Position numbers and translations under genes: made by a program. This document shows, one piece after another, positions 4,098-60,043 of a stretch of 64,000 nt of DNA. A model generated the notes under the pieces. It saw nothing but the letters and a program-made list of their open reading frames with translations. It made no database searches and was not told the origin of the DNA. Each line of letters opens with the position of its first letter. The stretch's first letter is position 1. The DNA is from a virus (taxonomy: Duplodnaviria > Heunggongvirae > Uroviricota > Caudoviricetes), in the IMG/VR virus record IMGVR_UViG_2693429668_000006. One strand, given 5' to 3'.

Positions 4098-4236
4098 GTT
4101 TACCTCATAATAATTATGTGTTACTTAACCAGAAAATAAATATTACTATAAAAGATAGGTAAGTAAAAACCTATTTAATGTCTGCAATACATCGTAAACT
4201 TGCCTGTTAATCACAACTTAATTTAGTTAATATTTA

Positions 4237-5565
4237 ATGCAACTAACAATGGTAAGTACGAGAGCATACATGCCTGTTTTTATTTCTGTTGCAATTCTAA
4301 TGTTTTCCATAATAATTTTGTTTTTAGGTTTACTACTTGAGCCATTTCAAGATTGGAAGGTTACAGACCAAATTGCTGTATTGAGTAGTTTTATAACGAC
4401 AGCGGCTTTTTGTGCAACAGCGTGGAACGCCTATGAAGCAAGAAAAAGTGCAAAGGCAGCACTGGAGGCCGTTAGGATAACTACCGATTCATTGATTGAG
4501 ATGAGAAAAAATTCTTTCAAAGAATGGTTTGACACTTTATTAAATCAGCATGATGAGTTGTACAATAATGTCATACCAATCATTGAACAGACAAAAAAAC
4601 AATTTAATAAAAATGAAATGCATTCGTTTTTTTATCCATTGGTAAGAAAGCATGAGGTTATTCAGTACATAAAACATATTACCAATATATTAGTCTATGT
4701 AGATAACCGATTTTACATAGATGGAAATTGTTTTGATGAAAAAATGGAATATATTATTCAATTGAGTGGAAAAATACCACCGCAAATGAAGTTGGTTATT
4801 GCAGTTTTTGGATTGGACATCGATTCTCGTGAACCGCTGGATTCAAAAAAACTGTATGCTTTATTAAATAAATATGATTTTTTCAAAGATGAAATATTCT
4901 TTGATGATGCTTATTCAAGCATGCCTGAAGTAGAGCTATTTATAAAGGATAGATTTGATAAAATATTTAAAACCAAGATGTTAAAATACTTTTGGAACGT
5001 GATTAAGGAATATTATTCTCAAGTTGAAGTCAAAGAAATCTGGGTGGTTCGTCGTCCGCAAGTTGCTTCATCGGTATTAATGAACTACCAAACACCATTA
5101 TCTGGTTTAATTGATGATTATTTTAAAAATTTGCCAAATGAGGTAAAGAGCATTTTTGATGAAGCACTAAAAAAAGCTAATGATAGTGTTACGTCTATTG
5201 ATGACTATATTCATCGTTTGATCGGTTGCAGAGTCGCGTCGATTTCAGAGCATGTCCATTTCGAAAGTGAAATACTGAGTAGTGAAAAGGATGTGAAGGA
5301 TATGATTAAAAATTACATAGAGCAAAGAAAAACTGGAAAAAATGCGGTAAATCTTGGGCAGTTATATTTCTCGAGTGAGTCAGATGTAATTACAGGTGAT
5401 CAGTTGAGTGATGCGATCGATGAATATGAGAAAAAGTTGGCACTTATGGCAATAAACGATAATGATGATAGTGATAACCTATTGTGCCATATCTATATTA
5501 AATCATGTGAGATAGTTGATGAATATAAGCGTGAAACATTAAAATTGGGCGAGTACGCACAATAG
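4237..5565 (+). CDS. hypothetical membrane protein (two N-terminal TM helices, about 380 aa cytoplasmic domain), AT-rich
   Basis: Long ORF in strongly AT-rich DNA; hydrophobic segments PVFISVAILMFSIIILFLGLLL and IAVLSSFITTAAFCATAW. Confidence 0.55.
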   Translation: MQLTMVSTRAYMPVFISVAILMFSIIILFLGLLLEPFQDWKVTDQIAVLSSFITTAAFCATAWNAYEARKSAKAALEAVRITTDSLIEMRKNSFKEWFDTLLNQHDELYNNVIPIIEQTKKQFNKNEMHSFFYPLVRKHEVIQYIKHITNILVYVDNRFYIDGNCFDEKMEYIIQLSGKIPPQMKLVIAVFGLDIDSREPLDSKKLYALLNKYDFFKDEIFFDDAYSSMPEVELFIKDRFDKIFKTKMLKYFWNVIKEYYSQVEVKEIWVVRRPQVASSVLMNYQTPLSGLIDDYFKNLPNEVKSIFDEALKKANDSVTSIDDYIHRLIGCRVASISEHVHFESEILSSEKDVKDMIKNYIEQRKTGKNAVNLGQLYFSSESDVITGDQLSDAIDEYEKKLALMAINDNDDSDNLLCHIYIKSCEIVDEYKRETLKLGEYAQ

Positions 5566-5816
5566 GTTGTGCAGATTCGAAGCCTCTTTAAATTTTGCGC
5601 TGAAAATTGTTATTTTACGGTAAGTAACGCTGTTTTCAGCGCATAAATGTCAGTGAATAATTTGATGCTTGCTGTAACGATGGTACGCTACGTAAAATCC
5701 GATATTTATGAGACTGATTGCAGGTAAGGACTTACATAGCGCACAAAAATTGCTGATACCAGATGCAATATATGTTTAATGTCAAATTTTAGATAGGGGC
5801 GTATACGCCCCTGTCA

Positions 5817-6371
5817 TTATTTTATTTTATCTTCTTCTAAACGAGAAAATTTAAATTGTTTATCGGTGATGGTGAGTAGTGTTACACCTTCCTTTTCGTG
5901 TAAAAGACCGGCACCGTTTGACACCATAATCAATCTATCCTTCCCTCGAAAGATTTCATAATATTTACCAGCTCCACAAGTTTTAGTTTCAATACAGTCC
6001 ATGCCAGATACTGCTTCTCTGTTAAAAACACGATCTTTTGTAGCAACGGGTTTTCCGTACTCCTTTGTCAGCATTTCACTTATCTGGATGAATGTATACT
6101 TACCAACATTACTGGTTAATGACATTTCGACTTTTCCGTCGATCAGGTTGCCATTCGTATGCGGTTCTTTTTCAGTCGGACTATTTTTATCTTGAAGAAT
6201 AAACACTTCAACATTTTGTGTTAGCTTCTTGAATTGGGCTTTATAATTTTGTTCAAGTTCACTTTTATCTTTGCCTATTAACGTTAATTCATCTATTTCA
6301 GATTCGTTACACCCTGTTAGTGTTAACGCAATTATTAGAGATGCGAAAATATTGAGATGGCACTTCTTCAT
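5817..6371 (-). CDS. lipoprotein (signal peptide with lipobox LTGC)
   Basis: N-terminus MKKCHLNIFASLIIALTLTGC; AT-rich; hairpin 5795..5812 just past stop. Confidence 0.55.
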   Translation of the reverse strand: MKKCHLNIFASLIIALTLTGCNESEIDELTLIGKDKSELEQNYKAQFKKLTQNVEVFILQDKNSPTEKEPHTNGNLIDGKVEMSLTSNVGKYTFIQISEMLTKEYGKPVATKDRVFNREAVSGMDCIETKTCGAGKYYEIFRGKDRLIMVSNGAGLLHEKEGVTLLTITDKQFKFSRLEEDKIK

Positions 6372-6490
6372 TAATTTGTCTCCATGTTTAACTGCTGCGA
6401 TCTAATCAGGAACATGAAGGCAGTCTAACGCTGCCTCGGATCAAAGCGATAAAACGATACGTGAATATAACTAAGTGTCAACAAATCAAA

Positions 6491-6515
6491 AAAGGGGCCG
6501 AAGCCCCTTTGAATT
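6491..6515 (-). terminator. rho-independent terminator downstream of tRNA cluster
   Basis: Hairpin GGGGCCGAAGCCCC (6494..6507) followed on minus strand by TTTTTTGATTT. Confidence 0.5.
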
Positions 6516-6584
6516 TTGCGCTGAAAAAAGTGTTGCTAGGATGTTAGCAAGCTATGGTTAAGAACGTCTGCCGTAATTGTCTAT

Positions 6585-6662
6585 CACAGCGTTGAGCGGT
6601 CTGGTTTATGTTAGCGGAGTCTTAATCTGGTTGATTAAAAGGCCAAACCGCTCAACGCTGTG
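6585..6662. repeat. long inverted repeat (16 bp perfect arms, 46 nt loop) flanking tRNA cluster
   Basis: Arms CACAGCGTTGAGCGGT (6585..6600) and ACCGCTCAACGCTGTG (6647..6662). Confidence 0.6.
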
Positions 6663-6664
6663 TC

Positions 6665-6751
6665 TGGCGGAGAGTAATGGAATCGAACCATCATCGTTTG
6701 CACAATGGGACGGTTTTCAAGACCGCTTGAGCACCATGCTCCCTACTCTCC
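6665..6751 (-). tRNA. tRNA-Ser-like (anticodon UGA), type II, 87 nt
   Basis: Acceptor GGAGAGT/ACTCTCC, anticodon loop CTTGAAA, T-loop TTCGATT, 3' GCCA; hand-folded, D-arm not fully resolved. Confidence 0.5.
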
Positions 6752-7045
6752 AATTGTGTTGTGTGCTCCGTTTCGTGGAGCTAACGGCGGGTGATCAGAC
6801 CGCACCAGGTTGGACGTATTTCAGCGTTATGCTGTTGCAAGAGAGCCAAATTGTGATGGCCGGTGCTGATCTCCGGCATTGCCTACGTTAGCGGCCTTCA
6901 GGCAGTTCATCCGCTTGCTTCTACGTCGCACATCAGCCTGTGCATTCACCACAATGTTGAGAACACTGGTTGTCACGCTGCAACGCAACATTATATTCAT
7001 AAATTGGGATATGAACCCGTTACGCCAATGTTCTCAATATTATGT

Positions 7046-7121
7046 TGGTGCCGGTTAACGGACTTGAACCGCTGGCCATTTGCTTACAAAGCGACTGCTC
7101 TACCAACTGAGCTAAACCGGC
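7046..7121 (-). tRNA. tRNA-like, possibly tRNA-Thr (UGU), with imperfect anticodon stem (possible pseudo-tRNA)
   Basis: Good acceptor (GCCGGTT/AACCGGC), D-arm and T-arm, 3' ACCA, but anticodon stem GTCGC/GCAAA pairs at only 3 of 5 positions. Confidence 0.4.
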
Positions 7122-7125
7122 AATT

Positions 7126-7212
7126 TGGTGGGGAGTGATGGAGTCGAACCACCCGAGTCGCAATGACAGTAGATTTACAGTCTACACCGCTACCTCTACG
7201 GACTAACTCCCC
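7126..7212 (-). tRNA. tRNA-Tyr (anticodon GUA), type II, 87 nt
   Basis: Acceptor GGGGAGT/ACTCCCC, anticodon stem-loop GTAGA-CTGTAAA-TCTAC, long variable arm, T-loop TTCGACT, 3' ACCA; differs from host tyrT. Confidence 0.6.
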
Positions 7213-7217
7213 TAAAT

Positions 7218-7292
7218 TGGCGATGGTGGGTGGATTCGAACCACCGATCAGTTGGTTAACAGCCAACTGCTCTACCGCTGAGCTACACCATC
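7218..7292 (-). tRNA. tRNA-Asn (anticodon GUU), 75 nt
   Basis: Canonical cloverleaf: acceptor GATGGTG/CACCATC, D-arm GCTC-AGCGGTA-GAGC, anticodon stem-loop GTTGG-CTGTTAA-CCAAC, T-arm GGTGG-TTCGAAT-CCACC, 3' GCCA; sequence differs from host tRNA-Asn. Confidence 0.75.
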
Positions 7293-7678: not shown

Positions 7679-8081
7679 TGCTGGCTAACCATACCAGCCG
7701 GGCTACGTCGCCGCTTTTTAACCCAGTATAAACGACATAATTGAACAAAATGACGTAACAGGATGGGCGGTCAGTGGCTAAGAATCCGGGAGTGATATGG
7801 AGTTGGAAATATACCGACCGCCCATTCTGTTACTTCATCGGAGAGGGCATGGGTGGTGCCGTATCATGCCCTCTCCTGCGTTCTGCAATCACACTCGCTC
7901 AGTGTGTCCCATTTCGGTAACGAGGCTGGAAACTGACCTCGCTGGTGTTTGGCTTATTAGGCTACTGCCAGATAGACTTCTTCGTTTGCACTTGTATTTA
8001 AGTTCAAACAGTCGCGTCTCAACGAAAACAAAGCCATCTTATACATAAAAGATAAGTAAGTAAATACTTATCGTGATGTTT

Positions 8082-8372
8082 TTATTCGGTTGTGACTTTT
8101 TTGATCATGGCCACTCTACGATCAGGTGTTCTTGTGATGGTTGCAGTGAATCGTTTCGCTTGGATAGTAATGGTTTCGTTCTCCTTAAGTTGCCCGTAGC
8201 GAGTTTCCACCAGGGTGCCAAGACGCCACAGGCAATCATCGATACGTTTATGACTGGCAAATTTAATCAGCAGCAGTTTTACGACTAACTGACCTACGTA
8301 AAAGGCGAATCCGACTCCAGTCGCGATGAAATAGTGTACCAACCACCAGTCCCAAGAAGTTAAATTGCTCAT
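8082..8372 (-). CDS. hypothetical membrane protein
   Basis: ORF track; hydrophobic segment WDWWLVHYFIATGVGFAFYVG; start ATG overlaps stop of upstream small ORF (ATGA). Confidence 0.45.
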   Translation of the reverse strand: MSNLTSWDWWLVHYFIATGVGFAFYVGQLVVKLLLIKFASHKRIDDCLWRLGTLVETRYGQLKENETITIQAKRFTATITRTPDRRVAMIKKVTTE

Positions 8373-10749: not shown

Positions 10750-11532
10750 TTACCAACTTCCCCAGCTAATCATCTTGCGCTGATCGCTTTCTAAGCGATA
10801 GGGGGCAAGAAGCTCTGTGACATGATTGGTGGCGTATGATTTGGCCTCTTGCTCTATCATCGGTAATTCGTTAGCAATCCTGACCATCTTCCCAGCAAAT
10901 TCCGCCATTACGCCATCACACGCCTTACCCGCATCAACAATGATATGCACAAGATCCAACTGGCTTTTGCACATGTCCCAAAGAGTCGAATATTCGCTCT
11001 CCCTGATTAGGTTTACAGCATCATTAGCCCCTTTATTAATCAAAACCTCCAACAGATTTGTCGGGGTGACGAAATCGGCTTTCAGAGACAATGTTGGTTC
11101 AGCTTTTACCGACAGCAAGTAATCTTCAAAGTTTTGCTTGTCTTCCAGCAAAGCTAAACTACGCATAGCTCGAATTGATTCTCGAATAACGGCTTCAATA
11201 TGTTCGTCACCTGGAGGACAGATAATGGTATCTGTATAGATGACTCTGCCATCAAACCACGCCCCAACCTGCACTTTTAGAGTTCGTAAGTTTTCTTTGC
11301 GTACAAAAACAACTAATGCAGAACGTCGTGCATGTGCAGGTTCGCCCCATACGCACAACTTAACCTTCAGATAAGGTAGCCCCGGTAGAGGGATCTCGAC
11401 CAAACGAGTGGCGATATGATCCATTGCCGTATTGACGGCTTTTTCAATGATGTCTAGCCGATTGCTCTCGCTGATTTCTAAACCAGTTTTATCAATGATG
11501 TTGCAGGCTAATCTCTTAATTTCTTCTTTCAT
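10750..11532 (-). CDS. hypothetical protein
   Basis: ORF track, 260 aa, no recognised motif. Confidence 0.45.
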   Translation of the reverse strand: MKEEIKRLACNIIDKTGLEISESNRLDIIEKAVNTAMDHIATRLVEIPLPGLPYLKVKLCVWGEPAHARRSALVVFVRKENLRTLKVQVGAWFDGRVIYTDTIICPPGDEHIEAVIRESIRAMRSLALLEDKQNFEDYLLSVKAEPTLSLKADFVTPTNLLEVLINKGANDAVNLIRESEYSTLWDMCKSQLDLVHIIVDAGKACDGVMAEFAGKMVRIANELPMIEQEAKSYATNHVTELLAPYRLESDQRKMISWGSW

Positions 11533-11657
11533 ACCAACTCCTAGCTAACGGATGAAAGTATTCTTACAAAAACTTAAGTATGTATCTACTTATCATTTTA
11601 GGTGCAATAGTTCTTTATACTAAGATGCCGGGCATATCCTCAGCCCAGCATTCACCT

Positions 11658-12071
11658 TTAATGAGCTACAGCCTCACTGTTGCACATCTTTCTGTAGACC
11701 TGCTTATAACGCTGTAAATCATGAGGATCATTAGGTGCCAACGACTTCGATAGGATTTTGTATACCACCCCTTTTGAAAACATGCCCTTTGGCTTCATTT
11801 CGAGTTCAACAACATATGAGTGATAGCCCACGTATGCACCAAAGCCATTTTTGGCGTTTAATTCACCACACACAAAGCCTGTCACACTCCCATCATCATG
11901 ATCAGTCCTGACAAACTTATCTTTCCTAAACATCACCGACGTGGGATCTTTCATATCATCCGCAATTGCCTGTTGGCCCAGAGTAATAGCCTTCTCGTCT
12001 GTAGGCTTACACCCAACTAATGCAAACAACGACAATAAAGCACCTGTTAAAATCAACTTCTTTTTGCGCAT
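11658..12071 (-). CDS. lipoprotein
   Basis: N-terminus MRKKKLILTGALLSLFALVGC (lipobox LVGC). Confidence 0.55.
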   Translation of the reverse strand: MRKKKLILTGALLSLFALVGCKPTDEKAITLGQQAIADDMKDPTSVMFRKDKFVRTDHDDGSVTGFVCGELNAKNGFGAYVGYHSYVVELEMKPKGMFSKGVVYKILSKSLAPNDPHDLQRYKQVYRKMCNSEAVAH

Positions 12072-12298: not shown

Positions 12299-13552
12299 AT
12301 GAAACTCATAAAACCTTCATCGTTGCTGGCATTAGCTTTGCTTTTCGGCCCTGGATACGTTAACGCAGATAATAAACAAACGCTGATCGACGCCGCCACC
12401 GCAGGAGATACCACAGCACAAAGTGCGTTAGGGACAAATTATTTGGATGGGGCTAATGGCTTTGATGAGGATTTAGTAGAGGCCAAGAAGTGGATCGATC
12501 TCGCCGCAGAAAAGGGAGATAAAGTAGCATATTATGCGCTTGGGGTTATGTACACAATTGGGAAGGGAGTAGATAAAGATCTAAATAAGGCCGTTGAGTA
12601 CTACAAACTAGCAGGAAATGCTCGCAACGGCAGTGCTTACCATAATCTTGCCGTTATATACGAACGAGGTTGGACTGGAAAGGAGGACCCAGAAGCTGCT
12701 TTAAAATATCACAAACTAGCAGTAGAAGCTGGTGATATACCTTCGCTTGCCTATATGGGATATTTATATCAATACGGTAAGGGAGTTCCGAAAGATTACA
12801 AGAAAGCATTTAAATCTTATAAAAAGGCTGCGGATAGTGGAAATGCCGCAGGAATGTATGGGCTAGGCTCTATGTACGACGATGGTGTTGCTGTTAAGCG
12901 CAACAATAAAGAGGCAATTAAGTGGTACTTGAAAGCAGCTGAATTAGGAAATAATAACGCCATGAGCGCGCTTGGATACAAGTTGATGCATGGAGAAGGT
13001 ATAAAAAAAGACTATTCGAAGGCCAGAAGTCTTTTAGAACAAGCAATCAGCTTAGGAAATGATTATGCCATGAACCACCTTGGTTACATGTATCTTAAGG
13101 GATTGGGCGTCAAACAGGATTATCGGAAAGCATCAGAGCTTTACCAAGCTGCTTGCGATAAAGATGACGAAACGGGCTGCGAAAACGTTGCTGCAATGAA
13201 AGCAAAAGGTACGTTCCGTTCGCCTTCAAAACAGCAAAATGCCAAATCTGACACTCAGCGACTTATTGCTAAATCCATTGATAAAGGCGTTAACGCAACA
13301 TTTACCTGGCAGGGTGATGATGCCGTCTTCACCGCTAATGATGGCAAAGTTGACTGCACCTTCTTGAAGGATTTTTCAGAGAAAGGAGGCAATCTGGCTA
13401 CCTCGTTTGTTTGCACCGATAACGTTCAAATCATCCTGAAGCAATTCAGAGATACCAAGAATGCCTACCTCGCGGTAATGACTGACAACTTCAACACAGA
13501 AGTTAAATCATTTTCGGTCAATGTTTACGTGACTAATACTGGTTCAAACTAA
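12299..13552 (+). CDS. secreted Sel1-repeat (TPR-like) protein
   Basis: Signal peptide MKLIKPSSLLALALLFGPGYVNA; repeated A-x-Y-x-L-G-x-M-Y-x-x-G-x-G-V-x-x-D/K units typical of Sel1 repeats; plus-strand island among minus-strand genes. Confidence 0.6.
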   Translation: MKLIKPSSLLALALLFGPGYVNADNKQTLIDAATAGDTTAQSALGTNYLDGANGFDEDLVEAKKWIDLAAEKGDKVAYYALGVMYTIGKGVDKDLNKAVEYYKLAGNARNGSAYHNLAVIYERGWTGKEDPEAALKYHKLAVEAGDIPSLAYMGYLYQYGKGVPKDYKKAFKSYKKAADSGNAAGMYGLGSMYDDGVAVKRNNKEAIKWYLKAAELGNNNAMSALGYKLMHGEGIKKDYSKARSLLEQAISLGNDYAMNHLGYMYLKGLGVKQDYRKASELYQAACDKDDETGCENVAAMKAKGTFRSPSKQQNAKSDTQRLIAKSIDKGVNATFTWQGDDAVFTANDGKVDCTFLKDFSEKGGNLATSFVCTDNVQIILKQFRDTKNAYLAVMTDNFNTEVKSFSVNVYVTNTGSN

Positions 13553-47132: not shown

Positions 47133-47158
47133 TTGAATAACCTTAGATAATTACTTAC

Positions 47159-49518: not shown

Positions 49519-50409
49519 TTATGCCGGTAAAGCAATTTCTAACGGTTTATCCAAAGGTTGTTTGTCGAATGCCAGCAGTGGCAGCGTGTCAGGCAGTCGA
49601 CGGCCAAAGTCAGGGTTTCGGTACACACCATACAACGGAGACGTAAAGCTCAGGTTGTGAATGTCCTTGAGCAGCTTCACAATGCTGGCCTCGTCCACCA
49701 GACTGTCGGCAATGTCCTGAATCGTCGTGCCACGATTCCGCCCAGCTTTTGCCAGGGAACTGTTCTTATGGTAGTCCGCCACCAAATCGCGCAGCGCACG
49801 GCGACGACGAGACTCGCTCATAGCGAACAACTCTTTGACGATCGCCTCGTTATCACCCGGGTCGGAGCGGAAATGGCGCTGGAACACACGCAGTGCACTT
49901 TCATAGCTCTTCGGTCGCTCAGGGCGGATGAACTTAAACCCTGCTTTCATGGCGAAGGGATTGTATTTGCTCATCGAGGACTGGATCTCAATGATTGGCC
50001 GGTCATGCATCCTGCTAACCAGGTTAATCATTCTATAAGAGACGCCTACGCCACGATACTGAGTATCCACAACTGAGCGACTGATCACCGCAAAGTTGTT
50101 ATTCACGTACCGACCCCAGTACTGGTTAGCCACGGTGGTATTAGTGGTTGGTTTCAACTTAGGAAACATGCGGTGGCGAGGTGCCAACAGTAGTTTCGGG
50201 TAAGCCATAACCACGACGCCCACCAGACGGTCATCAAGTTCGCAGCGATAGTAAGTTGGCGCGAAAGGTTTGCCGTCTGTTTTGTAGTGAAGCGACTTAA
50301 GAGCGTGCCAGTCCTCTACAGTTCCCTTTGTAACAGTCATTCGCTCCAGAAAGTCCAGATGACGCGGAAACTCTTCAGGGCGGTAGCGTTTAATGATGAT
50401 GTCCGTCAT
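49519..50409 (-). CDS. GNAT-fold acetyltransferase-like protein
   Basis: Motif A-like VVDTQYRGVGVSYRMINL (Q-x-x-G-x-G); 296 aa; start overlaps stop of ABC ATPase gene. Confidence 0.5.
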   Translation of the reverse strand: MTDIIIKRYRPEEFPRHLDFLERMTVTKGTVEDWHALKSLHYKTDGKPFAPTYYRCELDDRLVGVVVMAYPKLLLAPRHRMFPKLKPTTNTTVANQYWGRYVNNNFAVISRSVVDTQYRGVGVSYRMINLVSRMHDRPIIEIQSSMSKYNPFAMKAGFKFIRPERPKSYESALRVFQRHFRSDPGDNEAIVKELFAMSESRRRRALRDLVADYHKNSSLAKAGRNRGTTIQDIADSLVDEASIVKLLKDIHNLSFTSPLYGVYRNPDFGRRLPDTLPLLAFDKQPLDKPLEIALPA

Positions 50410-51071
50410 GAATGGACCTCATCATGACTACCATTGTGATATTCCACCTTCACGCGTTCTTTGTAGTGCTTGGTGATCTGCATATCAGGGCGCAGCGCGT
50501 TCTTCAGGTCTTCGTGAGTCGTCGCCACCATTACCGTCGCACCAACCTTTCGAGCGGCACGCTGGAGGTTAGACGCCACAACCTGAGCGGTTACACGGTC
50601 GAGAACAGCGCCGAACTCGTCAGCAGCCCATACTTTAGCGCCTGACTCAATCAGTTTGGCAATCTTGAGACGATATTTCTGGCCGTCTGACATTTCAGAA
50701 GGCTTGCGAACAAACAGATATGCATCGTTCAGACCAGCCATAGATAACAACCCAAGCGCATCACTGGTCGTTTTGCCCAACTGATCGATGACGTTAACCT
50801 CATTATCGAAGGTAAAATCATCGATGGAGGCTACAGACAGCCCTTCATCCTTCATCTGTCGTTGCAACTCGCGCAGCACAACGGATTTGCCGGAACCGGA
50901 TTGGCCGGTGATGTACACCACATCGCCCTGCTTCACTTCCAGCTCCAGATTGTCGTAAAGCGTCCACTCTTTTTCGTCCAGGCCAAGCCCGAACGACTCA
51001 GCGATTTCCAACGTGCGCGTGGTTTTATTTACGCGTGTCTGAAACGATACGTTGATGATGTATTTGCTCAT
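50406..51071 (-). CDS. ABC-type ATPase (soluble, single nucleotide-binding domain)
   Basis: Walker A GQSGSGKS, signature MSDGQKYRL, Walker B KVWAADEF, H-loop VATTHE. Confidence 0.65.
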   Translation of the reverse strand: MSKYIINVSFQTRVNKTTRTLEIAESFGLGLDEKEWTLYDNLELEVKQGDVVYITGQSGSGKSVVLRELQRQMKDEGLSVASIDDFTFDNEVNVIDQLGKTTSDALGLLSMAGLNDAYLFVRKPSEMSDGQKYRLKIAKLIESGAKVWAADEFGAVLDRVTAQVVASNLQRAARKVGATVMVATTHEDLKNALRPDMQITKHYKERVKVEYHNGSHDEVHS

Positions 51072-51736
51072 GCAGCCATCTCCCCGGAAGAGATCTTCTC
51101 CGCATATGCCACAAATGCGTCTACCCCGCTTTCTCCCGTCATTTCTTCCATATGGGCAAGCAAATCACCAACAACAATGGCAGAGCCAGCAGGGAGCGTT
51201 TTAAAGCCCAATACGTCGACAACACGTACTTCTTCCGCTGCAACTTCACGACTGATCTCGGTGTGTTCATCCTTCTGTCGTTTAGTTTCTTCGCCAAGAT
51301 CGATAACTAGCGAGTCGGTGTCCATTTCTTCTGTCATACTGCCAACGAGAACATTCAACTCACGCTCTTCAAAGCCGAAAACCTCGATATCGTCCAGAAC
51401 AAGCGACTCAAGCTCTTTCTGTAGCTTAATTGCATCGTAATCAATGCTGGCAAGTCGGTTATCTTCAAGGCGCTTCGCACGAACCTCGTCATCACTGAGA
51501 TCATCGCGAACAATAACCGGTACGCGCTCAAGTCCAGCAAAAATTGCAGCCTCACGGCGGCCGTGGCCAGTAATAATTACGTCGTTCTTATCGACCGTAA
51601 TTGGCTGGTCAAATCCGCGCTTTTTAATGGCTGCGGCTAGATCTCGGATCTGCTGTTCATCATGCTTTTTGGCATTCATCTCATAGGGAATAAGATCTGC
51701 CGGGTCGCGATATACGATTTCAAACTTTTTGGTCAT
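51068..51736 (-). CDS. ParB-like nuclease domain protein
   Basis: ParB/Srx motif ITGHGRREAA; acidic C-terminus; start set at ATG 51736 overlapping upstream stop. Confidence 0.55.
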   Translation of the reverse strand: MTKKFEIVYRDPADLIPYEMNAKKHDEQQIRDLAAAIKKRGFDQPITVDKNDVIITGHGRREAAIFAGLERVPVIVRDDLSDDEVRAKRLEDNRLASIDYDAIKLQKELESLVLDDIEVFGFEERELNVLVGSMTEEMDTDSLVIDLGEETKRQKDEHTEISREVAAEEVRVVDVLGFKTLPAGSAIVVGDLLAHMEEMTGESGVDAFVAYAEKISSGEMAA

Positions 51737-52434
51737 TACATACGCTCCTTGTAGTAGTCGACCAGCCACACCAGAGCCTCACCAGCGTTCTCCATTTCAT
51801 TACCGGTGTTAATAGCCTGCTCTTTGATGATGTTTTTTATGGTTTCTGCAACACGATCTGACGCATCGAAAGTTACTTTGAAGCGCATGGTCTGATGTTC
51901 CGCACCCACACGTTCGGTTTTCTCTCGTTTGTCGGTATCGACAGGCTCATCACTACCACGAGACAACGCCTCCAGTGCTTCAAGGTCGATTGCCGCCTCT
52001 TTTGCTAAAACCATCGAGATTTCGTCGTCATACGGAGCGATTTCAGACAGTTGATAGTCAAGTTCTGACTGAATTTCTTCAATGAAGCGTTGCAATGCGA
52101 TTTGGTCGTCTTCACCGTATCGCTCGTTGTCCACCAGTGACATCTGTTTAGCTACGACATCGCTAATTTTGCCCACAGAAAGCACCGGAACCGTTGAAAT
52201 TCCTTGCTCAATAGCAGCACGCCAGCGATGTTCGCCGCCGAGGATTTCAAAAAATCCATCTTCAAGTTCACGAGCCAAAATTGGCTTAAAAAAGCCCAAT
52301 TTTTCGATAGAACCTTTCAGTTTTTCAAAATTCTGCGCACCAACCGAATTGGTGTTCCAGGTATTCGGGCGAAGGTTGGCAACATCAACCTGCAAAATCG
52401 TGATTTTTACATCCATTTTATTGCTACAATCCAC
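51736..52434 (-). CDS. ParB-like nuclease domain protein (second copy)
   Basis: ParB/Srx motif ILGGEHRWRAA. Confidence 0.55.
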   Translation of the reverse strand: MDCSNKMDVKITILQVDVANLRPNTWNTNSVGAQNFEKLKGSIEKLGFFKPILARELEDGFFEILGGEHRWRAAIEQGISTVPVLSVGKISDVVAKQMSLVDNERYGEDDQIALQRFIEEIQSELDYQLSEIAPYDDEISMVLAKEAAIDLEALEALSRGSDEPVDTDKREKTERVGAEHQTMRFKVTFDASDRVAETIKNIIKEQAINTGNEMENAGEALVWLVDYYKERM

Positions 52435-52498
52435 TAAGTAATCACTTACTTATTATAATAGCCAAATAACATACAAAAGGCACTAAGGAAAGAGGTTT

Positions 52499-54058
52499 AT
52501 GACTGTTCGGATTGTATCTAACGCAGTAAATGCGCTTATTTCTGGCGCAGATGACAAGGTAAAGCAACTGGTGCAGCAAATGTTGAGCTACGAAGTCGAG
52601 ACTGGCGACTGGAAGGGCACAAGCACGATGTTCAACTGGAGTAAAAACTCGTTCCCTGCTGGCTTTGCCAAGCCTGTAGCGGCGAACTTGAACAAGGCGG
52701 GCATCAAATGTGTTCATATCCGCAAAGACAAAGCCCCGGCGCTTGGTAAACCAAATCCTGCGGTTAACCCATTCCCATACAATCCTGATTATGCGTATCA
52801 GGATCAGACTGTGGAAACACTGGTTCGAGAGGGAATGATGATTGCGCAGATCGCTACTGGTGGCGGGAAATCTAACGTTGCCTGCAAAGCAGCTGCACGT
52901 ATCGGTCGAATGACATTATTTTTAACAACCCGCTCTGTTCTGATGTTTCAAATGGCCGAAAACTTCCAGAGATCCATCGACTACCGCGCCGAAAATGGCG
53001 AACCGTGGTTAAAAGACCAAAAGGTTGGAGTCATTGGCTCGGGTGAGTTCCAGGTATCACGACATATCAACGTCGCTACAGTTCAAACTCTTGCAAGTTT
53101 CCTCGAAGAACCACCACGCGATGCAACACCAGATAAGAAAAGCTACCACCTCAAACGTCGGGAGTTGGTGAAACGCTTCCTTTCAAGTGTCTCTCTTCTT
53201 ATTCTGGAAGAGGCGCATGAGTCTTCAGGCTCAAATTTCTATGACATCGCCAGATTATGTGTGAACGCAGACTATCGTCTGGCGCTTACAGCCACGCCGT
53301 TCATGAAGGATTCGACGGAAGCCAACATGCGCCTGATGGCGGTGGCCGGGCGAATTGAAATTAAAGTCACAGAAAAGTACCTGATTGATCGAGGCATTCT
53401 GGCAAAGCCGTACTTCCTTTATCATAAAGTTGCCTACAAGCCAGACGAGGCCAGAATCAAGGCCGAACTTGCCAACAAACACCTCAATTTTAGAGTTGGT
53501 ATGAGCACCGCCTACCAAAAGGCTTATCAGTTGGGGATCGTGTATAATTTGGGACGTAACGAGGCCATAGTGCGCGAGGCATTGCTTTATAAGCAACATT
53601 CACTCAACTGCATGACTCTGGTTCGTCTTAAACGCCACGGGCAAATCCTGATGGAGATGATGAAGGAGTCAGGTCTTAAAGTTGATTTCATCTATGGGGA
53701 ATCTAACCAGACGACAAGGCAAGCAAAGCTGAATAGTTTAGCGTCTGGTGAAATAGATGTTTTAATAGGCTCGACTATTCTGGATGTTGGTGTTGATGTG
53801 CCAAGCGTTGGTGCGGTCATTCTTGCTGGTGGTGGGAAAGCAGAAGTTGAAATGAGACAGCGTGTCGGTCGTGGCTTACGAGCCAAAAAAAATCAGGCAA
53901 ACGTGTGTTTTATCACCGATTTCATTGACATTAGCAACAAATACCTGTTGTCTCACTCTTATGAGCGAAAACACATCATCGACACCACACCTGGCTTTGC
54001 AGAAGGTGTATTGCCTATTGATGGAGCATTCGATTTTGGAGTTCTGAAACGAGATTAG
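52499..54058 (+). CDS. SF2 (DEAH-type) DNA/RNA helicase
   Basis: Walker A ATGGGKS, DEAH-like LILEEAHE, motif III TATPF, motif VI QRVGRGLR. Confidence 0.7.
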   Translation: MTVRIVSNAVNALISGADDKVKQLVQQMLSYEVETGDWKGTSTMFNWSKNSFPAGFAKPVAANLNKAGIKCVHIRKDKAPALGKPNPAVNPFPYNPDYAYQDQTVETLVREGMMIAQIATGGGKSNVACKAAARIGRMTLFLTTRSVLMFQMAENFQRSIDYRAENGEPWLKDQKVGVIGSGEFQVSRHINVATVQTLASFLEEPPRDATPDKKSYHLKRRELVKRFLSSVSLLILEEAHESSGSNFYDIARLCVNADYRLALTATPFMKDSTEANMRLMAVAGRIEIKVTEKYLIDRGILAKPYFLYHKVAYKPDEARIKAELANKHLNFRVGMSTAYQKAYQLGIVYNLGRNEAIVREALLYKQHSLNCMTLVRLKRHGQILMEMMKESGLKVDFIYGESNQTTRQAKLNSLASGEIDVLIGSTILDVGVDVPSVGAVILAGGGKAEVEMRQRVGRGLRAKKNQANVCFITDFIDISNKYLLSHSYERKHIIDTTPGFAEGVLPIDGAFDFGVLKRD

Positions 54059-54365: not shown

Positions 54366-54830
54366 ATGAAGTCTCCCATACTGTTCACTTTCTGTTCTAA
54401 AACTATCATGAAATACTCGCTTCTCCCTCTACTAACGTTACCAGTGTTGATGCTTGCCGCGTGCCAATCACACCCAATATCAATCCATGACGCCAAACCA
54501 GCACCGCAGGCCAAAGTGTTAAAGTATCAAAGCGCAGCGCCAGCTACGTTGGTGGTAATGAGAGACACAGGTTTTGTAGGAGCTGGATGTGATGCTTCCA
54601 TTTTCATCAACGGCGAAACTGTCGCAAAACTGGCTACAGGCGAAAAAGCGACTTTCCATTTAAATGCCGGAGAATTAATTGTGGGTGCATCTCTTGAAGG
54701 TGCAGGTTTATGTGCTCTAAACCCCGCTCGTCAAGAGCGAGAAACGACTCTGAAGAATGGAGACACAAAAGCGTTCAGGGTGTTTACCAGCAATTCTGGT
54801 GACATCGACATTCTGCCAACAACTCTGTGA
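54366..54830 (+). CDS. lipoprotein
   Basis: Signal peptide with lipobox LMLAAC. Confidence 0.5.
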   Translation: MKSPILFTFCSKTIMKYSLLPLLTLPVLMLAACQSHPISIHDAKPAPQAKVLKYQSAAPATLVVMRDTGFVGAGCDASIFINGETVAKLATGEKATFHLNAGELIVGASLEGAGLCALNPARQERETTLKNGDTKAFRVFTSNSGDIDILPTTL

Positions 54831-54834
54831 TGAC

Positions 54835-55359
54835 ATGACAACCAAAGATATTACCTACGGTATCCAAGCTGAACTCTGGCCGCGAGATTACACTAACGTT
54901 GAAAAACTACTGATGTTCTGGCGCAGAGAACAAATTCCTGTAAGGGTCACTCTCGAAGATGGCCAGGCGTTTTGCATGTACGTTTATGGCCTCATGCCAT
55001 CTCGTAACAAAGTTGACCTTTGCCCAGCCCCTTTTGACAAAGAAAATCGTATAAGGCTCCCACTTGAACGCATTAGTACAATTGAATCAGGTGTGGTTGA
55101 CAGTATCGCTCACGATTTCAAAGGTCGACTAACAGTTCACCCTGATTATGTCGATAATCGGCCATCACGCCGCGATTTTTTTGCAATTTGCAACCAAGCC
55201 TACAAAGCAAACAAATCTATAAGGGTGTACATGGCGGATGGCCGTGAAATTGAGGGGGTGTCAGCAGGCGCAGATGCTTGTCAGGTTACACTACGTGTCG
55301 AGAACGGTAGAAAAATAGTTGTTTTGTTCGATTGGGTTGAACGAATTTTGCCTTTTTGA
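54835..55359 (+). CDS. hypothetical protein; start uncertain
   Basis: ORF track (54757 start overlaps previous gene); internal ATG at 54835. Confidence 0.4.
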   Translation: MTTKDITYGIQAELWPRDYTNVEKLLMFWRREQIPVRVTLEDGQAFCMYVYGLMPSRNKVDLCPAPFDKENRIRLPLERISTIESGVVDSIAHDFKGRLTVHPDYVDNRPSRRDFFAICNQAYKANKSIRVYMADGREIEGVSAGADACQVTLRVENGRKIVVLFDWVERILPF

Positions 55360-58700: not shown

Positions 58701-58883
58701 ATCCTCACTGCGTAAACATGTTGTTTTCTTGTTGGTGTAATTATCGCAGTGTAGATAAGGCATAAAAGAAGTTAATACAGGCTGAATACACAAGAAAGGT
58801 TCTGGAAGTTGATAGCCAGGTTTCAAACTAACCTTCGGTTATTAAAAGTCATTTAAGACCACCAATGCTGGTGGCCTTAATAA

Positions 58884-59027
58884 TTATCGCCCGATTACGC
58901 TAAGGATCTTTTCCTCAACTGATTTGTTGTTGCGACTAAACTGCCTTGCGTATCTGATGACAGAAGAGGCGTTTTGCTTTCTGACCATCTCGGCTCTTTC
59001 CTTCAGGCGTTTCTTGAAATCGCCCAT
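58884..59027 (-). CDS. possible small basic protein (47 aa)
   Basis: Hand-translated MGDFKKRLKERAEMVRKQNASS...; below ORF-track cutoff; hairpin 58855..58878 downstream. Confidence 0.25.
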   Translation of the reverse strand: MGDFKKRLKERAEMVRKQNASSVIRYARQFSRNNKSVEEKILSVIGR

Positions 59028-59029
59028 AT

Positions 59030-59404
59030 TTACCACCAGGCGCAGAAGGTCAGTCTGTTATTGTGAAAGTCGTGGTTCTTAATCAGATCTTCCACAAGCT
59101 CTTTCAACTCCCCCACATCATGCCAGTAACCTTCATCGTACTCCTGACTGCCGAAGAAAAAACCTTCCCGGGTAGGCAAGTACTCTTCGCAATTACTTTC
59201 GTTTATGTGCATCAAATGAGCCTTCAGAAAACAAATGTCATTCATCGTTAATTCTAAAAGCTCACAATTTTCGACTTCACCTACGTTGCGCTCCATCCAC
59301 CCAACGAGCGCATTGAACTTACGGAAGTAAGCAACCTGCTTTCTGGATGCCTCGTTATTCAGATCGTTTTTAGGCTGTGTCTCGATATAGATATCAAGTC
59401 CCAT
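59030..59404 (-). CDS. hypothetical protein (accessory array)
   Basis: ATG at 59404 with SD AAGGAA. Confidence 0.4.
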   Translation of the reverse strand: MGLDIYIETQPKNDLNNEASRKQVAYFRKFNALVGWMERNVGEVENCELLELTMNDICFLKAHLMHINESNCEEYLPTREGFFFGSQEYDEGYWHDVGELKELVEDLIKNHDFHNNRLTFCAWW

Positions 59405-59490
59405 GATGGTTTCCTTATTAAGTTGCTTCAGTGAAATCATTTTCACAAATCAGATAAGGCAGAAAACAAATTGTTATCGGGCTTAATAAA

Positions 59491-59517
59491 ATGGCGCGGT
59501 TTACGCGCCATTTAAAG
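59491..59517 (-). terminator. rho-independent terminator after gene 59522..59917
   Basis: Hairpin ATGGCGCG-GTTTA-CGCGCCAT followed on minus strand by TTTATT. Confidence 0.5.
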
Positions 59518-59521
59518 AGGA

Positions 59522-59917
59522 TTAAGCGAATACGCTTTCAGGGATTAAGGTGTCGGCAGGAATGCCAGAGGTAATGCGCAGGCCGTACTGACCAATCCAG
59601 GTAGTGTTGGTATTCAGGTTGGAGGCGAATACGGTGTTAACCATATTCATCATGGTTTCAAACACCTCTTCATCAACCTGGCGGAAGTAGCTCTCGATTT
59701 TCAGCAGCAGCGGGTCAGTTGCATCGAGAATGGACTGGTATTGAGTCGCGTACTCGCCGTCGGAGTCATCACCTTTACGCACGATCGTACTGGCCTGTAC
59801 TTCGGCGCCAGTTTCGGTGTTGTACGTAACAACGGTGATTTTTGCCACATTCTTACCTTCGGCGGTTTCAGAGGCATAGTAAACATCAACTGTCAGTTTT
59901 TCGCGTTTAATGGTCAT
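59522..59917 (-). CDS. hypothetical protein (accessory array)
   Basis: ATG at 59917 with SD GGAGAG. Confidence 0.45.
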   Translation of the reverse strand: MTIKREKLTVDVYYASETAEGKNVAKITVVTYNTETGAEVQASTIVRKGDDSDGEYATQYQSILDATDPLLLKIESYFRQVDEEVFETMMNMVNTVFASNLNTNTTWIGQYGLRITSGIPADTLIPESVFA

Positions 59918-60043
59918 TTCACTCTCCGTAGTGTATTGGTTATTTTTATATTCTATGATCGTAAGTATGTACTTACAATACAAAAAAGCCCCGTAAGGAT
60001 GGCGGGGCTGTCGTACTGTCGACTAATTACCACTTGCACATTA

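Follow-up and report, generated by a model that had tools for sequence, protein, structure and literature searches.

Dispersed symmetric dyads between the genes of an SSU5-type phage-plasmid as possible operators of its lytic genes

The window is a 64,000-nt stretch of DNA (IMG/VR record IMGVR_UViG_2693429668_000006) and is an SSU5-type phage-plasmid of E. coli, with 98% identity to the phage-plasmid Cyrano (pLF82). Its intergenic regions carry a symmetric site of ~22 bp, (W-N-R-R)TARGTA-NN-TACYTA(Y-Y-N-W), built of TARG/CYTA units at strict 4n (4-bp) phasing, so that the spacing from TARGT to ACYTA is 4 or 8 only. Individual dyads are 14–22 bp long, and there are 13 strong loci in the window. 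The sites and their surroundings are as follows.

4154–4175 (core 4160–4173): dyad GATAGGTAAGTAAAAACCTATT, 63 nt upstream of a plus-strand cargo gene (4237–5565) that matches phrog_18168 and is window-specific, with no homolog in Cyrano or SSU5.
8051–8072 (core 8057–8070): dyad GATAAGTAAGTAAATACTTATC, downstream of the minus-strand gene 8082–8372; 15 nt further on along the minus strand lie TATAAGAT and a block kept in four genera, upstream of a tRNA cluster.
11575–11592: dyad TAAGTATGTATCTACTTA, between the minus-strand genes 11658–12071 and 10750–11532, followed on the minus strand by the extended -10-like TGTAAGAAT.
16945–16962: dyad TAGGTAGTTACTTACTTA, abutting the Shine-Dalgarno sequence of the minus-strand gene 16191–16940, a CYRAN_31 homolog and the first of the helicase/primase genes.
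22529–22548 (core 22530–22543): dyad TAGGTATATACTTA, upstream of the minus-strand holin gene 22143–22466; an Acinetobacter relative has an orthologous site upstream of its holin gene.
26740–26757: dyad TAAGTAAATACTTACCTA, between tail gene J (26789–31522, minus) and the tail fibre gene (22670–26695, minus).
33659–33676, minus strand: dyad TAAGTAAGTACTAATTTA, between tail genes M and L, within a promoter-like TGGATA-17-TATCAT (33680–33652, minus); a hairpin (33648–33626) follows the dyad.
40145–40160: perfect 16-bp palindrome GTAAGTATATACTTAC, upstream of the minus-strand tail gene 39348–40130, overlapping a promoter-like match TTGAAT-18-TATACT.
43721–43738, minus strand: dyad TAGATAAGTAATTATCTA, directly after the major capsid gene and followed by an intrinsic-terminator-like hairpin (43713–43697, minus), an arrangement common to the Acinetobacter relative.
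45637–45654: dyad TAGGTAAGTACTGACTTA, inside the 3' end of the portal gene, filling the spacer of TTGAAA-17-TATGAT (45661–45633, minus), the best sigma-70-like match in 40–60 kb; kept in SSU5.
47144–47161, minus strand: dyad TAGGTAAGTAATTATCTA, occupying the 26-nt gap that separates the large terminase gene from the portal gene, whose Shine-Dalgarno sequence it abuts; in IMG/VR relatives and Acinetobacter this gap holds each lineage's own motif variant.
52435–52448: dyad TAAGTAATCACTTA, between the divergent genes for ParB_N (51736–52416, minus) and the UvsW helicase (52499–54058, plus), 5 nt upstream of a plus-strand TATAAT; orthologous site in Acinetobacter.
59961–59976: dyad GTAAGTATGTACTTAC, after a terminator and upstream of a CYRAN_107 homolog, inside TTGTAA-17-TAGAAT (59978–59950, minus), a geometry kept in SSU5.
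2053–2123: two degenerate copies, TAAGTGCCTATCGA (2053–2066) and TCGGTAAGCACTTA (2110–2123), flanking the promoter-like TTTACA-16-TAATAT of the plus-strand XRE repressor gene (2157–2543); Klebsiella has GGTAAGTACTTACC at the matching position.

All sequences quoted in the preliminary description of this DNA were found at their coordinates. The site at 22529–22548 is not the perfect 20-mer it was taken for; it has 7-bp arms, GTAGGTA/TACCTAC, around TATACT, and the conserved dyad within it is TAGGTA-TA-TACTTA. Two positions listed as TAAGTA dyads, 17070 and 49181, are spaced differently (TAAGT-N1-ACTTA) and form the apex of a separate 59-bp palindrome present in two inverted copies (17046–17104 and 49164–49218). 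Nearly all sites do lie between genes, as stated, including that at 59961 once an over-long ORF call is corrected; the exception is the site at 45637 within the portal gene.

The intergenic TAAGTA..TACTTA dyads are clearly enriched. With up to one mismatch, TARGTANNTAYYTA has 40 strand-matches, where dinucleotide shuffles of the whole window predict 1.13 ± 1.18. In the comparison of intergenic with coding DNA by which the preliminary description proposed to judge its motif, composition-preserving shuffles of intergenic DNA only predict 5.8 ± 2.4 copies of TAAGTA/TACTTA where 25 are observed, and 0.10 loci of the 14-mer where 11 are observed, whereas coding DNA holds 15 copies against 18.8 expected and is unenriched. 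TAAGTA/TACTTA is also the top 6-mer for intergenic enrichment (28 intergenic versus 16 coding, p = 3e-17, the intergenic share of the window being 10.6%). Information content is restricted to the symmetric ~22 bp, with no repeat-element flanks. No -10 or -35 box occurs at a fixed offset from the dyad, and the orientation of its longer arm is independent of the direction of transcription. On the sense strand the dyads comprise 248 Watson-Crick, 44 G.U and 47 A.C pairs; since A.C is about as common as G.U, RNA pairing is not selected. Covariation was not seen at the R/Y pair of the dyad.

Cyrano has ~23 motif loci and SSU5 ~24, in both early and late regions and nearly all intergenic. Between these two genomes the dyad core is 89.7% identical compared with 69.8% for the flanks (p = 1e-12). 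The motif also occurs in two Klebsiella lineages and in Yersinia pMT1, Photorhabdus and Buttiauxella relatives. In the Acinetobacter relative, ~27 sites with an altered half-site, AGTCAGTACTGACT, occupy orthologous positions that include the terminase/portal gap, the post-capsid site with its terminator, holin, UvsW/ParB, cobS, SSB, SbcD, Nrd and ThyX. Further lineage variants are found in the terminase/portal gap, and Enterobacterales-range relatives include N6 spacing (one lineage has gone from N2 to N6) and TATGTA arms. Site positions stay orthologous across protein identities of 30–60%. The half-site has co-evolved with the lineage while positions are conserved from E. coli to Acinetobacter, and the equivalent positions in relatives, where a check had been suggested, do carry orthologous sites. 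The dyad is a symmetric double-stranded DNA site under purifying selection. Given this symmetry and selection, together with the lack of selection for RNA pairing, protein binding, as first proposed, is the best reading.

Four of the 13 strong sites lie inside sense-strand sigma-70-like matches, filling the spacer or the -10, where ~0.4 would be expected by chance. Around the site -10-like hexamers are equally frequent on both strands, and, relative to candidate -10 boxes, the site lies anywhere from about -42 to overlap with the start codon. At cobS (TAAGAT/TAGAAT) the site centre is near -42.5, an activator-like geometry. Published lysogen RNA-seq data (PMC9928086, S1 Table) show background levels for the genes that directly follow strong sites. 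Expression falls across the site orthologous to 16945–16962, from 54.6 for CYRAN_30 to 6.2 for CYRAN_31, and across another from 31.5 for CYRAN_64 to 7.5 for CYRAN_65. In the same data the XRE gene stands at 96 against a background of 9.8, the gene for a ParA partner at 89, and UvsW, with its TATAAT 5 nt from a site, at 46, and the ParB_N gene (CYRAN_119) has zero reads (PMC9928086).

These features are tentatively explained by dyads acting as dispersed operators through which lytic units are silenced while the element is a plasmid, in the manner of phiC31 CIRs or L5 stoperators. The short gaps that precede or separate nearly all lytic transcription units, both early and late, hold about two dozen copies. 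However, dependence of the sites on a lytic-phase activator would predict lysogen silence just as well. Also counted against operators are the expression of UvsW at 46, the activator-like geometry at cobS, and the lack of a canonical site both in the divergent Cro-side part of the switch region and upstream of the ParA operon.

Three proteins encoded in the window are candidates for binding the dyad.

2157–2543, plus strand: XRE-type helix-turn-helix repressor, CYRAN_45 homolog; the prime candidate.
18871–19230, minus strand: 119-aa ParA partner with a basic tail followed by a strand-helix-helix pattern; the second candidate.
51736–52416, minus strand: ParB_N protein, CYRAN_119 homolog; its C-terminal MRFKV segment, strand-helix-helix-like, is conserved.

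The XRE gene adjoins an integrase gene and is divergent from a small gene in the Cro position (1693–1905, minus). It shares an immunity-like module with the integrase gene, and weak copies of the site occur on both sides of its own promoter. SSU5, described as virulent (PMC5427195), has no integrase-XRE module, which fits the expectation for a repressor-less derivative. Against XRE as the binder, full-strength sites are kept in SSU5 despite the missing gene, and the protein has diverged to 48–56% across Enterobacterales lineages in which the motif is invariant, putative recognition helix residues included (ANN versus PNI). In the same comparison the ParB_N protein shows 87% conservation, and the ParA partner has not changed at all in its strand-helix-helix-like part. 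Arrays of units in 4n phase and a change from N2 to N6 would also be unusual for a helix-turn-helix dimer. The ParA partner, judged from its sequence, looks ParG/omega-like.

It is also conceivable, if doubtful, that the dyads are ~25 parS-like loading sites for the ParB_N protein, which would be expressed in the lytic cycle only. Binding would possibly occur via a C-terminal ribbon-helix-helix-like module, and the role of the protein would be that of an anti-silencer or activator resembling VirB, or else a DNA-organising or packaging-related one. It has a ParB_N domain with a GGEHRWRAA box and resembles Spo0J and Noc, and its C-terminal MRFKV and two helices are conserved. Relatives as distant as Acinetobacter keep a canonical site 18 nt ahead of its start codon, and the sites persist in virulent SSU5. 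The 87% conservation in Klebsiella accompanies an unchanged motif there, and in the lineage that went from N2 to N6 the protein is down to 42–46% identity while its neighbour is still at 68%. Where the half-site is TARGTA, the putative DNA-facing strand residues read T-R-K-T/S, and where it is of the GTCA type, in three lineages, they read I/V-R-K-P; this covariation comprises three classes only and is confounded by phylogeny. The tolerance of variable promoter distance by ParB-type spreading proteins (VirB, KorB) counts in favour as well. However, the ribbon-helix-helix assignment comes from a sequence pattern with no Pfam or PDB profile match and an AF2 model of pLDDT 36. Sites that fill a spacer or overlap a -10 resemble repressor rather than activator positions, and a protein with zero lysogen reads cannot explain lysogenic silence.

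The preliminary description had suggested a late-gene activator or a phage-specific polymerase, and sites of this kind, switching on downstream genes in the lytic phase, are improbable. Genes behind the sites are indeed silent in the lysogen, the sites are retained in virulent SSU5, and several are followed by a good -10 with no recognisable -35 (the UvsW TATAAT, cobS and TGTAAGAAT-type boxes). Yet DNA-metabolism and early genes are preceded by sites as often as structural genes, and one site shared by early and late genes cannot define a temporal class. The symmetric site with its orientation untied to transcription, the variable -10 offset and the equal -10-like hexamers on both strands argue in the same direction. 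Some sites sit in complete sigma-70-like promoters, where an activator should be unnecessary, and the annotations of Cyrano and SSU5 list neither an RNA polymerase gene nor a sigma gene.

Very improbable are sites for a host DNA-binding protein, the nucleoid-protein sites of the preliminary description among them, or selfish or neutral repeats such as recombination hot spots at module boundaries. A host factor could explain why the motif differs between host orders (Enterobacterales versus Acinetobacter), and the site before the strain-specific cargo gene is as expected at a recombination joint. Lineage-specific variants nevertheless exist within the Enterobacterales range (N6 spacing, TATGTA arms), half-sites differ between element lineages at orthologous positions, positions are still orthologous at 30–60% protein identity, and ~22 bp alone are conserved, with a core under purifying selection and no repeat-element flanks.

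Hairpins in mRNA serving as processing, stability, translational-operator or terminator elements, suggested by palindromic dyads often directly 5' of a Shine-Dalgarno sequence, by one dyad that precedes a terminator and by an FljA-like putative mRNA-binding repressor encoded in the window, can hardly be entertained, being largely refuted by the sense-strand pair counts and absent R/Y covariation, with a 2-nt spacer that cannot form a loop, no T-runs, no Rfam match and several sites in divergent or non-transcribed contexts.

A literature search found no description of a TARGTA-NN-TACYTA dyad; dispersed operators do have parallels elsewhere. The conserved inverted repeats (CIRs) of the Streptomyces phage phiC31 are reportedly bound by its repressor (Ingham et al. 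1994; Smith et al. 1999). They are ~17-bp palindromic operators in many highly conserved intergenic copies genome-wide, one of them at the repressor gene promoter and not all on obvious promoters. The window dyads are likewise many-copy intergenic palindromes with a copy at a repressor promoter and some members lacking an obvious promoter. However, phage, host and repressor family are unrelated, and the window dyads are predicted sites with 4-bp-phased TARG units and degenerate copies at the repressor promoter. Mycobacteriophages L5 and Bxb1 reportedly have stoperators, about 25–30 repressor sites in short intergenic gaps of early and late operons that give genome-wide lysogen silencing, partly by blocking elongation (Brown et al. 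1997). The window dyads are similar in number, gaps and early and late spread, and silencing is proposed here. Stoperators are said to be asymmetric 13-mers whose orientation matters, whereas the window dyads are symmetric and orientation-independent.

Phage P1 is likewise a phage-plasmid with many scattered operons, controlled by the C1 repressor through more than 17 operators; a single repressor is proposed for the window. The C1 operators are asymmetric 17-mers, and the Lpa inverted repeat of P1 lies next to the -10 at a fixed position of about -22, in late promoters only. The window dyads are neither asymmetric nor fixed in position and late-only. Among partition proteins, KorB of RK2 is a ParB-family protein with 12 palindromic OB sites, the ribbon-helix-helix proteins omega (pSM19035) and ParG (TP228) bind arrayed units of 7 bp or 4 bp that may point either way, and VirB of Shigella is a ParB-like anti-silencer. 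The window dyads share with these systems dispersed short palindromes or unit arrays, variable promoter distance and a large plasmid, their 4n phasing resembles ParG tetramer boxes, and the window has a ParB_N gene beside one site as well as a gene for a ParG-like ParA partner. Differences from these systems are that no helix-turn-helix was detected in the ParB_N protein, that its ribbon-helix-helix is putative and its gene is silent in the lysogen, that the motif was not found in a clustered centromere array, and that the ParA operon has no canonical site upstream.

The dyad is most likely bound by an element-encoded multimeric regulator of nearly the whole lytic gene set. Acting at dispersed operators in the plasmid-prophage state, the bound protein would occlude sigma-70 promoter cores and would form a roadblock at sites immediately ahead of a ribosome-binding site. 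Lytic genes would thus be kept off, and the maintenance genes scattered among them (partition, toxin-antitoxin, RepA and the repressor itself) would remain on.

The motif consists of two short arms, TARGTA and TACYTA, placed symmetrically about two nucleotides (the dyad), and occurs at 13 strong loci in the window, in gaps between lytic genes. From 20 to 44 kb the window is 98% identical over 99% of the query (megablast) to Escherichia phage Cyrano (OV696614), which is the pLF82 phage-plasmid of E. coli LF82, and ~80% identical (megablast) to Salmonella phage SSU5. The Cyrano annotation, with genes numbered CYRAN_nn, gives the following layout.

Layout of the window, from the Cyrano annotation
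2.1-3.6 kb, integrase and XRE-repressor module
8-20 kb, replication genes and ParA operon
~21.4-49 kb, minus strand, late structural and lysis genes
51-54 kb, UvsW / ParB_N region

Intergenic DNA makes up 10.6% of the window, and TAAGTA/TACTTA is its most intergenic-enriched hexamer (28 intergenic and 16 coding occurrences, p = 3e-17). The 14-mer TARGTANNTAYYTA, allowing at most one mismatch, has 40 strand-matches where 1.1 are expected. When the intergenic DNA alone was shuffled with dinucleotides preserved, 5.8 +/- 2.4 intergenic hexamers were expected and 25 observed, and 0.10 intergenic 14-mer loci were expected and 11 observed; in coding DNA the hexamer count (15) does not exceed the shuffled expectation (18.8). 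The enrichment is therefore real, and the intergenic excess on which the preliminary description had staked its palindromes survives correction for composition. All of the sequences quoted in that description were found where it placed them. However, the palindrome at 22529, called a perfect 20-mer, is imperfect, and the sites at 17070 and 49181, while palindromic, are not copies of this motif, being the apex of an inverted, duplicated 59-bp palindrome. The sites are nearly all between genes, as had been said, except that 45637 sits within the 3' end of the portal gene. TAAGTA is also the top intergenic hexamer in Cyrano (p = 1e-26) and SSU5 (p = 1e-25).

Two other words, GGCTATAGCC and CAAATTGT, are non-significant in the window as second motifs, and a T4-like late promoter, TATAAATA, is intergenic-enriched in Cyrano but gives an inconsistent signal in the window. 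Copies of CAAATTGT/ACAATTTG lie at 6847, 16170, 20097, 58232, 59467, 62356 and 62768. Six of these seven are intergenic, and Cyrano has 8 intergenic copies versus 1 coding; the total count is not above chance, and the word may be a second, weaker regulatory one.

An alignment of 41 intergenic sites from Cyrano and SSU5, oriented by the downstream gene, limits the information content to ~22 symmetric base pairs, W-N-R-R-TARGTA-NN-TACYTA-Y-Y-N-W. Neither a -10 nor a -35 is conserved there at a constant offset from the dyad. A frequent TATCAT 3' of the dyad, considered as a fixed promoter partner, recurs mirrored on the opposite side and so is part of the palindrome. In E. coli 4 and 8 are the sole spacings from TARGT to ACYTA, and the dyad therefore reads as TARG and CYTA units phased at 4 bp; elsewhere the phasing is 0/4/8 (Acinetobacter) or N2/N6/N10 (other relatives). 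The longer arm points both ways in Cyrano and SSU5, though nearly all genes share one strand. Sense-strand pairs across the dyad comprise 248 Watson-Crick, 44 G.U and 47 A.C, the R/Y pair does not covary, the spacer is 2 nt, and Rfam has no match at the dyads. Taken together, the symmetry, phasing, mixed arm direction, pairing data and Rfam result indicate a double-stranded DNA site, presumably bound by a symmetric multimer; they suit neither an RNA hairpin nor a directional promoter.

Approximately 23 loci with at most one mismatch occur in Cyrano and ~24 in SSU5, nearly all of them intergenic, and they span both the structural/lysis and the DNA-metabolism regions, i.e. early and late genes. 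Across 21 orthologous sites of Cyrano and SSU5, identity is 89.7% over the 12 specified core positions and 69.8% over the flanks (p = 1e-12), with R to R or Y to Y accounting for many of the core changes; the core is under selection. Enrichment of the motif extends to Yersinia pestis pMT1, two plasmid lineages of Klebsiella, and contigs from Photorhabdus and Buttiauxella. A relative from Acinetobacter baumannii (107 kb; 44 common proteins at ~24-60% identity) shows no enrichment of TAAGTA. It carries ~27 sites of the type (A)TCAGTCAGTACTGACTGA(T), with the dyad variant AGTCAGTACTGACT, and ACTGACT is found there 32 times in intergenic and 11 times in coding DNA (p = 3e-24). The positions are again orthologous: the sites occupy the terminase|portal gap, the position after the capsid gene (with a terminator following), the region upstream of the holin gene and the divergent UvsW|ParB region, as well as positions upstream of cobS, SSB, SbcD, Nrd and ThyX. 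Conservation at equivalent positions in related elements is seen in SSU5 and Cyrano and, with a changed half-site, in Acinetobacter. In portal-anchored IMG/VR loci, the terminase|portal gap holds the lineage variants TAGGTA-N6-TACCTA, TATGTA arms, TAAGTCA and TAGTCAATATTGACTA. The dyad positions are ancestral and the half-site co-evolves with the lineage, which points to a binder that would be encoded by the phage-plasmid itself.

The centre of the dyad lies at varied offsets from orthologue-conserved candidate -10 boxes: ~-42.5 (cobS), -34.5 (upstream of the tRNA genes), -31.5 (TGTAAGAAT type), -25.5, -24.5 and -17.5. One dyad overlaps a start codon. In a consensus scan, sense-strand sigma-70-like matches contain 4 of the 13 strong dyads.

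Sigma-70-like matches containing strong dyads
45661-45633, TTGAAA-17-TATGAT, dyad fills the spacer; top match in its 20 kb
59978-59950, TTGTAA-17-TAGAAT, contains a dyad
40177-40148, TTGAAT-18-TATACT, contains a dyad
33680-33652, TGGATA-17-TATCAT, contains a dyad

By our estimate ~0.4 such overlaps would arise by chance (74 matches in 60 kb); AT-rich intergenic DNA inflates promoter overlap, so the overlap is taken as modest support. Some dyads may suit a roadblock position, such as the one in the 26-nt terminase|portal gap and those that abut Shine-Dalgarno sequences. In the published LF82 lysogen RNA-seq, genes directly behind strong dyads are at background (5-11, median 9.8), with UvsW (46) as the exception (PMC9928086 S1 Table). 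Expression falls across a dyad from 54.6 at CYRAN_30 to 6.2 at CYRAN_31, and across another from 31.5 at CYRAN_64 to 7.5 at CYRAN_65; the first of these falls could instead be due to a terminator or to the 59-bp palindrome. None of the genes expressed in the lysogen (toxin-antitoxin pairs, the ParA operon, RepA, XRE and integrase) lies behind a strong dyad (PMC9928086 S1 Table).

The reading that we tentatively prefer, and hold at slightly below even confidence, is that the dyads are dispersed operators for lysogenic silencing, with the XRE repressor ahead of the ParA partner as binder. In the plasmid-prophage state, lytic transcription units would be silenced through the dyads: the bound protein would occlude promoter cores and, where dyads abut ribosome-binding sites, would act as a roadblock. 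What the data show is the site with its symmetry, selection and distribution, its promoter-like overlaps and the silence downstream; that a protein binds, that it represses and which protein it is, we infer. Early and late genes share the one site, as would be expected of a global lysogenic silencer more than of an activator confined to a single temporal class. In the literature covered, sequence-string and topic searches turned up no account of the motif or of SSU5-type regulation, and nothing on how the ~100 kb of lytic genes are silenced or switched on; in a preprint on SSU5-type heteroresistance, a term count finds neither repressor, operator nor palindrome.

The closest systems in behaviour are presumably the conserved inverted repeats (CIR) of phiC31, the stoperators of L5/Bxb1, the P1 C1 operators, and the global regulators KorB, omega and ParG. 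The phiC31 type is matched in its palindrome of ~14-20 bp and its numerous copies between genes in early as well as late regions; its copy at the repressor promoter is represented in the window only by degenerate copies at the XRE promoter. Stoperators of the L5 type are asymmetric and fixed in orientation relative to transcription, whereas this dyad is symmetric and its longer arm runs in either direction, so it is not of that kind. Stoperators also occupy short gaps within operons, behind active promoters, where they silence the genes beyond; some of the dyads would suit such a placement.

The XRE repressor gene (2157-2543, plus strand) adjoins the integrase gene, is divergent from a small gene in the Cro position, and is expressed at 96 in the lysogen (PMC9928086 S1 Table). 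The degenerate dyad copies at its E. coli promoter lie on both flanks; GGTAAGTACTTACC is found upstream of the gene in Klebsiella and TAAGTGTTTACTTA in Photorhabdus, and Acinetobacter has degenerate copies of TCAG type. Against XRE as the binder, the protein falls to 48-56% identity across lineages with an unchanged motif, and its putative recognition-helix residues differ too. Covariation of helix and motif is uninformative: both ANN (E. coli, Yersinia, Photorhabdus and Klebsiella lineage 2) and PNI (Klebsiella lineage 1) occur with TAAGTA, and PNV with an extra Arg pairs with the Acinetobacter variant. SSU5 has no XRE gene, yet its dyads are of full strength. The whole module of integrase, XRE repressor and Cro-position gene, which Cyrano, pMT1 and 865 PLSDB plasmids carry between their tRNA genes and cobT, is missing from SSU5 (NC_018843, ~41.8-42.8 kb). 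SSU5 is described as virulent in one report (PMC5427195), which speaks for XRE as the binder, and the missing module is a candidate for a simple explanation of that lifestyle.

The ParA partner (18871-19230, minus strand) is expressed at 89 in the lysogen (PMC9928086 S1 Table). It has a basic tail and a strand-helix-helix sequence pattern like that of ParG or omega, and Pfam gives no ribbon-helix-helix match. The strand-helix-helix segment is identical in Klebsiella, the Acinetobacter protein is unrelated, and the ParA relatives found include no contigs of the N6-spacing lineage. The window resembles omega/ParG arrays in its short units with fixed phasing, the ribbon-helix-helix fold being a sequence pattern only; unlike those systems, it has no canonical dyad in the stretch 19899-20177 ahead of its own ParA gene, where there is only a weak TAGGCATTTAGGCTA. 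A FljA-like protein was also considered as binder and set aside, as it is not common to the Acinetobacter relative and an RNA-level model fails.

A distinctly less probable reading is that the dyads are loading sites for the ParB_N protein (51736-52416, minus strand; the CYRAN_119 homolog). This protein matches PF02195 (E = 3e-13) and is similar to Spo0J, ParB and Noc. The Spo0J match reaches residue 154 and Pfam gives ParB_N only; an acidic, variable linker forms the middle, and the C-terminus is a conserved MRFKV-helix-helix segment. The putative DNA-facing residues differ between TARGTA-class and GTCA-class lineages, and the protein is sharply diverged in the lineage whose spacing changes from N2 to N6. 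It is 87% conserved in Klebsiella, and a canonical dyad preceding its start codon by 18 nt is kept as far as Acinetobacter. Against this, neither lysogen replicate lifts CYRAN_119 above the detection floor of 4.99 (PMC9928086 S1 Table), so the protein could act only in the lytic cycle. A ribbon-helix-helix fold at the C-terminus is likewise unconfirmed, with no Pfam match, an empty profile search against PDB sequences, and an AF2 model that is unusable (pLDDT 36; alignment too shallow). In the ParB/parS and KorB/OB kind, a central helix-turn-helix recognises a 13-16 bp palindrome. The window shares with this kind an element-encoded ParB N-terminal CTPase-type domain, and differs in that the gene is silent in the plasmid state.

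More doubtful still is the bolder version in which the dyads are the read-out of a hitherto unrecognised kind of ParB, with an N-terminal CTPase-type domain, a C-terminal ribbon-helix-helix module and ~25 position-conserved, 4-bp-phased loading sites that would switch the whole lytic programme. If true, ParB protein and site specificity would be co-evolving across Gammaproteobacteria. It is improbable that the dyads are activator sites or promoters, given that they are symmetric, are not co-oriented, precede early genes too, and range in offset from ~-42 to start-codon overlap. The late-activator role first proposed does not suit a motif that also stands ahead of early and DNA-metabolism genes at a varying distance from the -10, and neither the late restriction nor the fixed -10 distance of P1 Lpa, Mu C and P2 Ogr sites is found here. 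A phage polymerase, also proposed, fares no better: promoters of the T7/N4 type are asymmetric and co-oriented, and no RNA polymerase gene is among the products of Cyrano or SSU5 that have an annotated function. Host-factor sites or neutral repeats are less probable again, since the half-site varies by lineage at orthologous positions. An RNA element is the least credible of all, with G.U pairs no commoner than A.C, and neither the transcribed-strand pairing nor the loop of at least 3 nt of a structured RNA or intrinsic terminator, nor a terminator's T-run.

Several further features of the window lie beside the dyads. The 59-bp imperfect palindrome (GACCTGCTTCTGTATATA...AATAAGTAACTTATT...TACATACGGAAGCAGGTC) occurs in two inverted copies, at 17046-17104 and 49164-49218. 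One copy, which includes TATAAATA, precedes the small terminase gene by ~120 nt at the Cyrano linearisation point; the other separates the KAP-NTPase cargo gene from the CYRAN_31 homolog. The palindrome may serve as a packaging site, a replication site or a bidirectional stop signal. A non-coding block, GTTTTCGTTGAGACGCGACTGTTTGAACG (~7975-8030, minus strand), lies 3' of the dyad at 8051-8072, after a conserved TATAAGAT/TATGAT box and upstream of the tRNA cluster. It is almost identical across E. coli, Salmonella SSU5, Klebsiella and Yersinia pMT1, Rfam gives nothing for it, and it may be a small RNA or leader. The best terminator-like match in 20-40 kb is a hairpin at 33626-33648 (minus strand; GGCGCTGACAGGATGTTAGCGCC then TACTTATTTC), directly 3' of a dyad and promoter-like sequence and just ahead of tail gene L. 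This layout is kept in SSU5, and the hairpin could be a leader attenuator.

The minus-strand stretches 51068-52416 and 49519-51071, immediately ahead of the terminase genes, encode two consecutive ParB_N-domain proteins and, after them, two ABC-type ATPases and a small putative DNA-binding protein. One of the ATPases is fused to an acetyltransferase-like domain in the Cyrano annotation. The whole block is lysogen-silent and is kept as far as the Acinetobacter relative. The FljA-like protein (54757-55359, plus strand; 200 aa; also phrog_1444) is kept in SSU5 and Cyrano and has a weak Hfq-like match at its C-terminus. Because its match to Pfam PF03614, 'repressor of phase-1 flagellin', is full-length (E = 2.5e-84), the phage-plasmid may repress host flagellin. 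The tRNA cluster (6665-7292, minus strand) has four genes (Ser-TGA, Thr-TGT, Tyr-GTA and Asn-GTT), where Cyrano has three and SSU5 one. Four strain-specific cargo genes have no counterpart in Cyrano or SSU5; the KAP-family NTPase is possibly tied to defence.

Cargo genes of the window
4237-5565, plus strand, phrog_18168 protein, with a dyad ahead of the gene
5817-6371, minus strand, 184-aa protein at the place where Cyrano has CYRAN_43, a very highly expressed gene
12299-13552, plus strand, Sel1-repeat protein
17113-18819, minus strand, KAP-family P-loop NTPase

SSU5-type phage-plasmids are common elements of ~100-115 kb in clinical Enterobacterales and Acinetobacter, some of them with resistance genes, and the family includes Yersinia pestis pMT1 as well as relatives of Salmonella Typhi pHCM2. 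As a dispersed phage operator network, a role the motif would have on the evidence of its sequence and placement, it is notable for position conservation across orders, a 4-bp-phased architecture, and its presence on medically relevant plasmids including pMT1. One site marking almost every lytic transcription unit is a direct experimental handle. Transcription-unit boundaries and immunity or incompatibility groups would be predictable from sequence alone, and the dyad variants would offer a natural series of co-evolved protein/site specificities.
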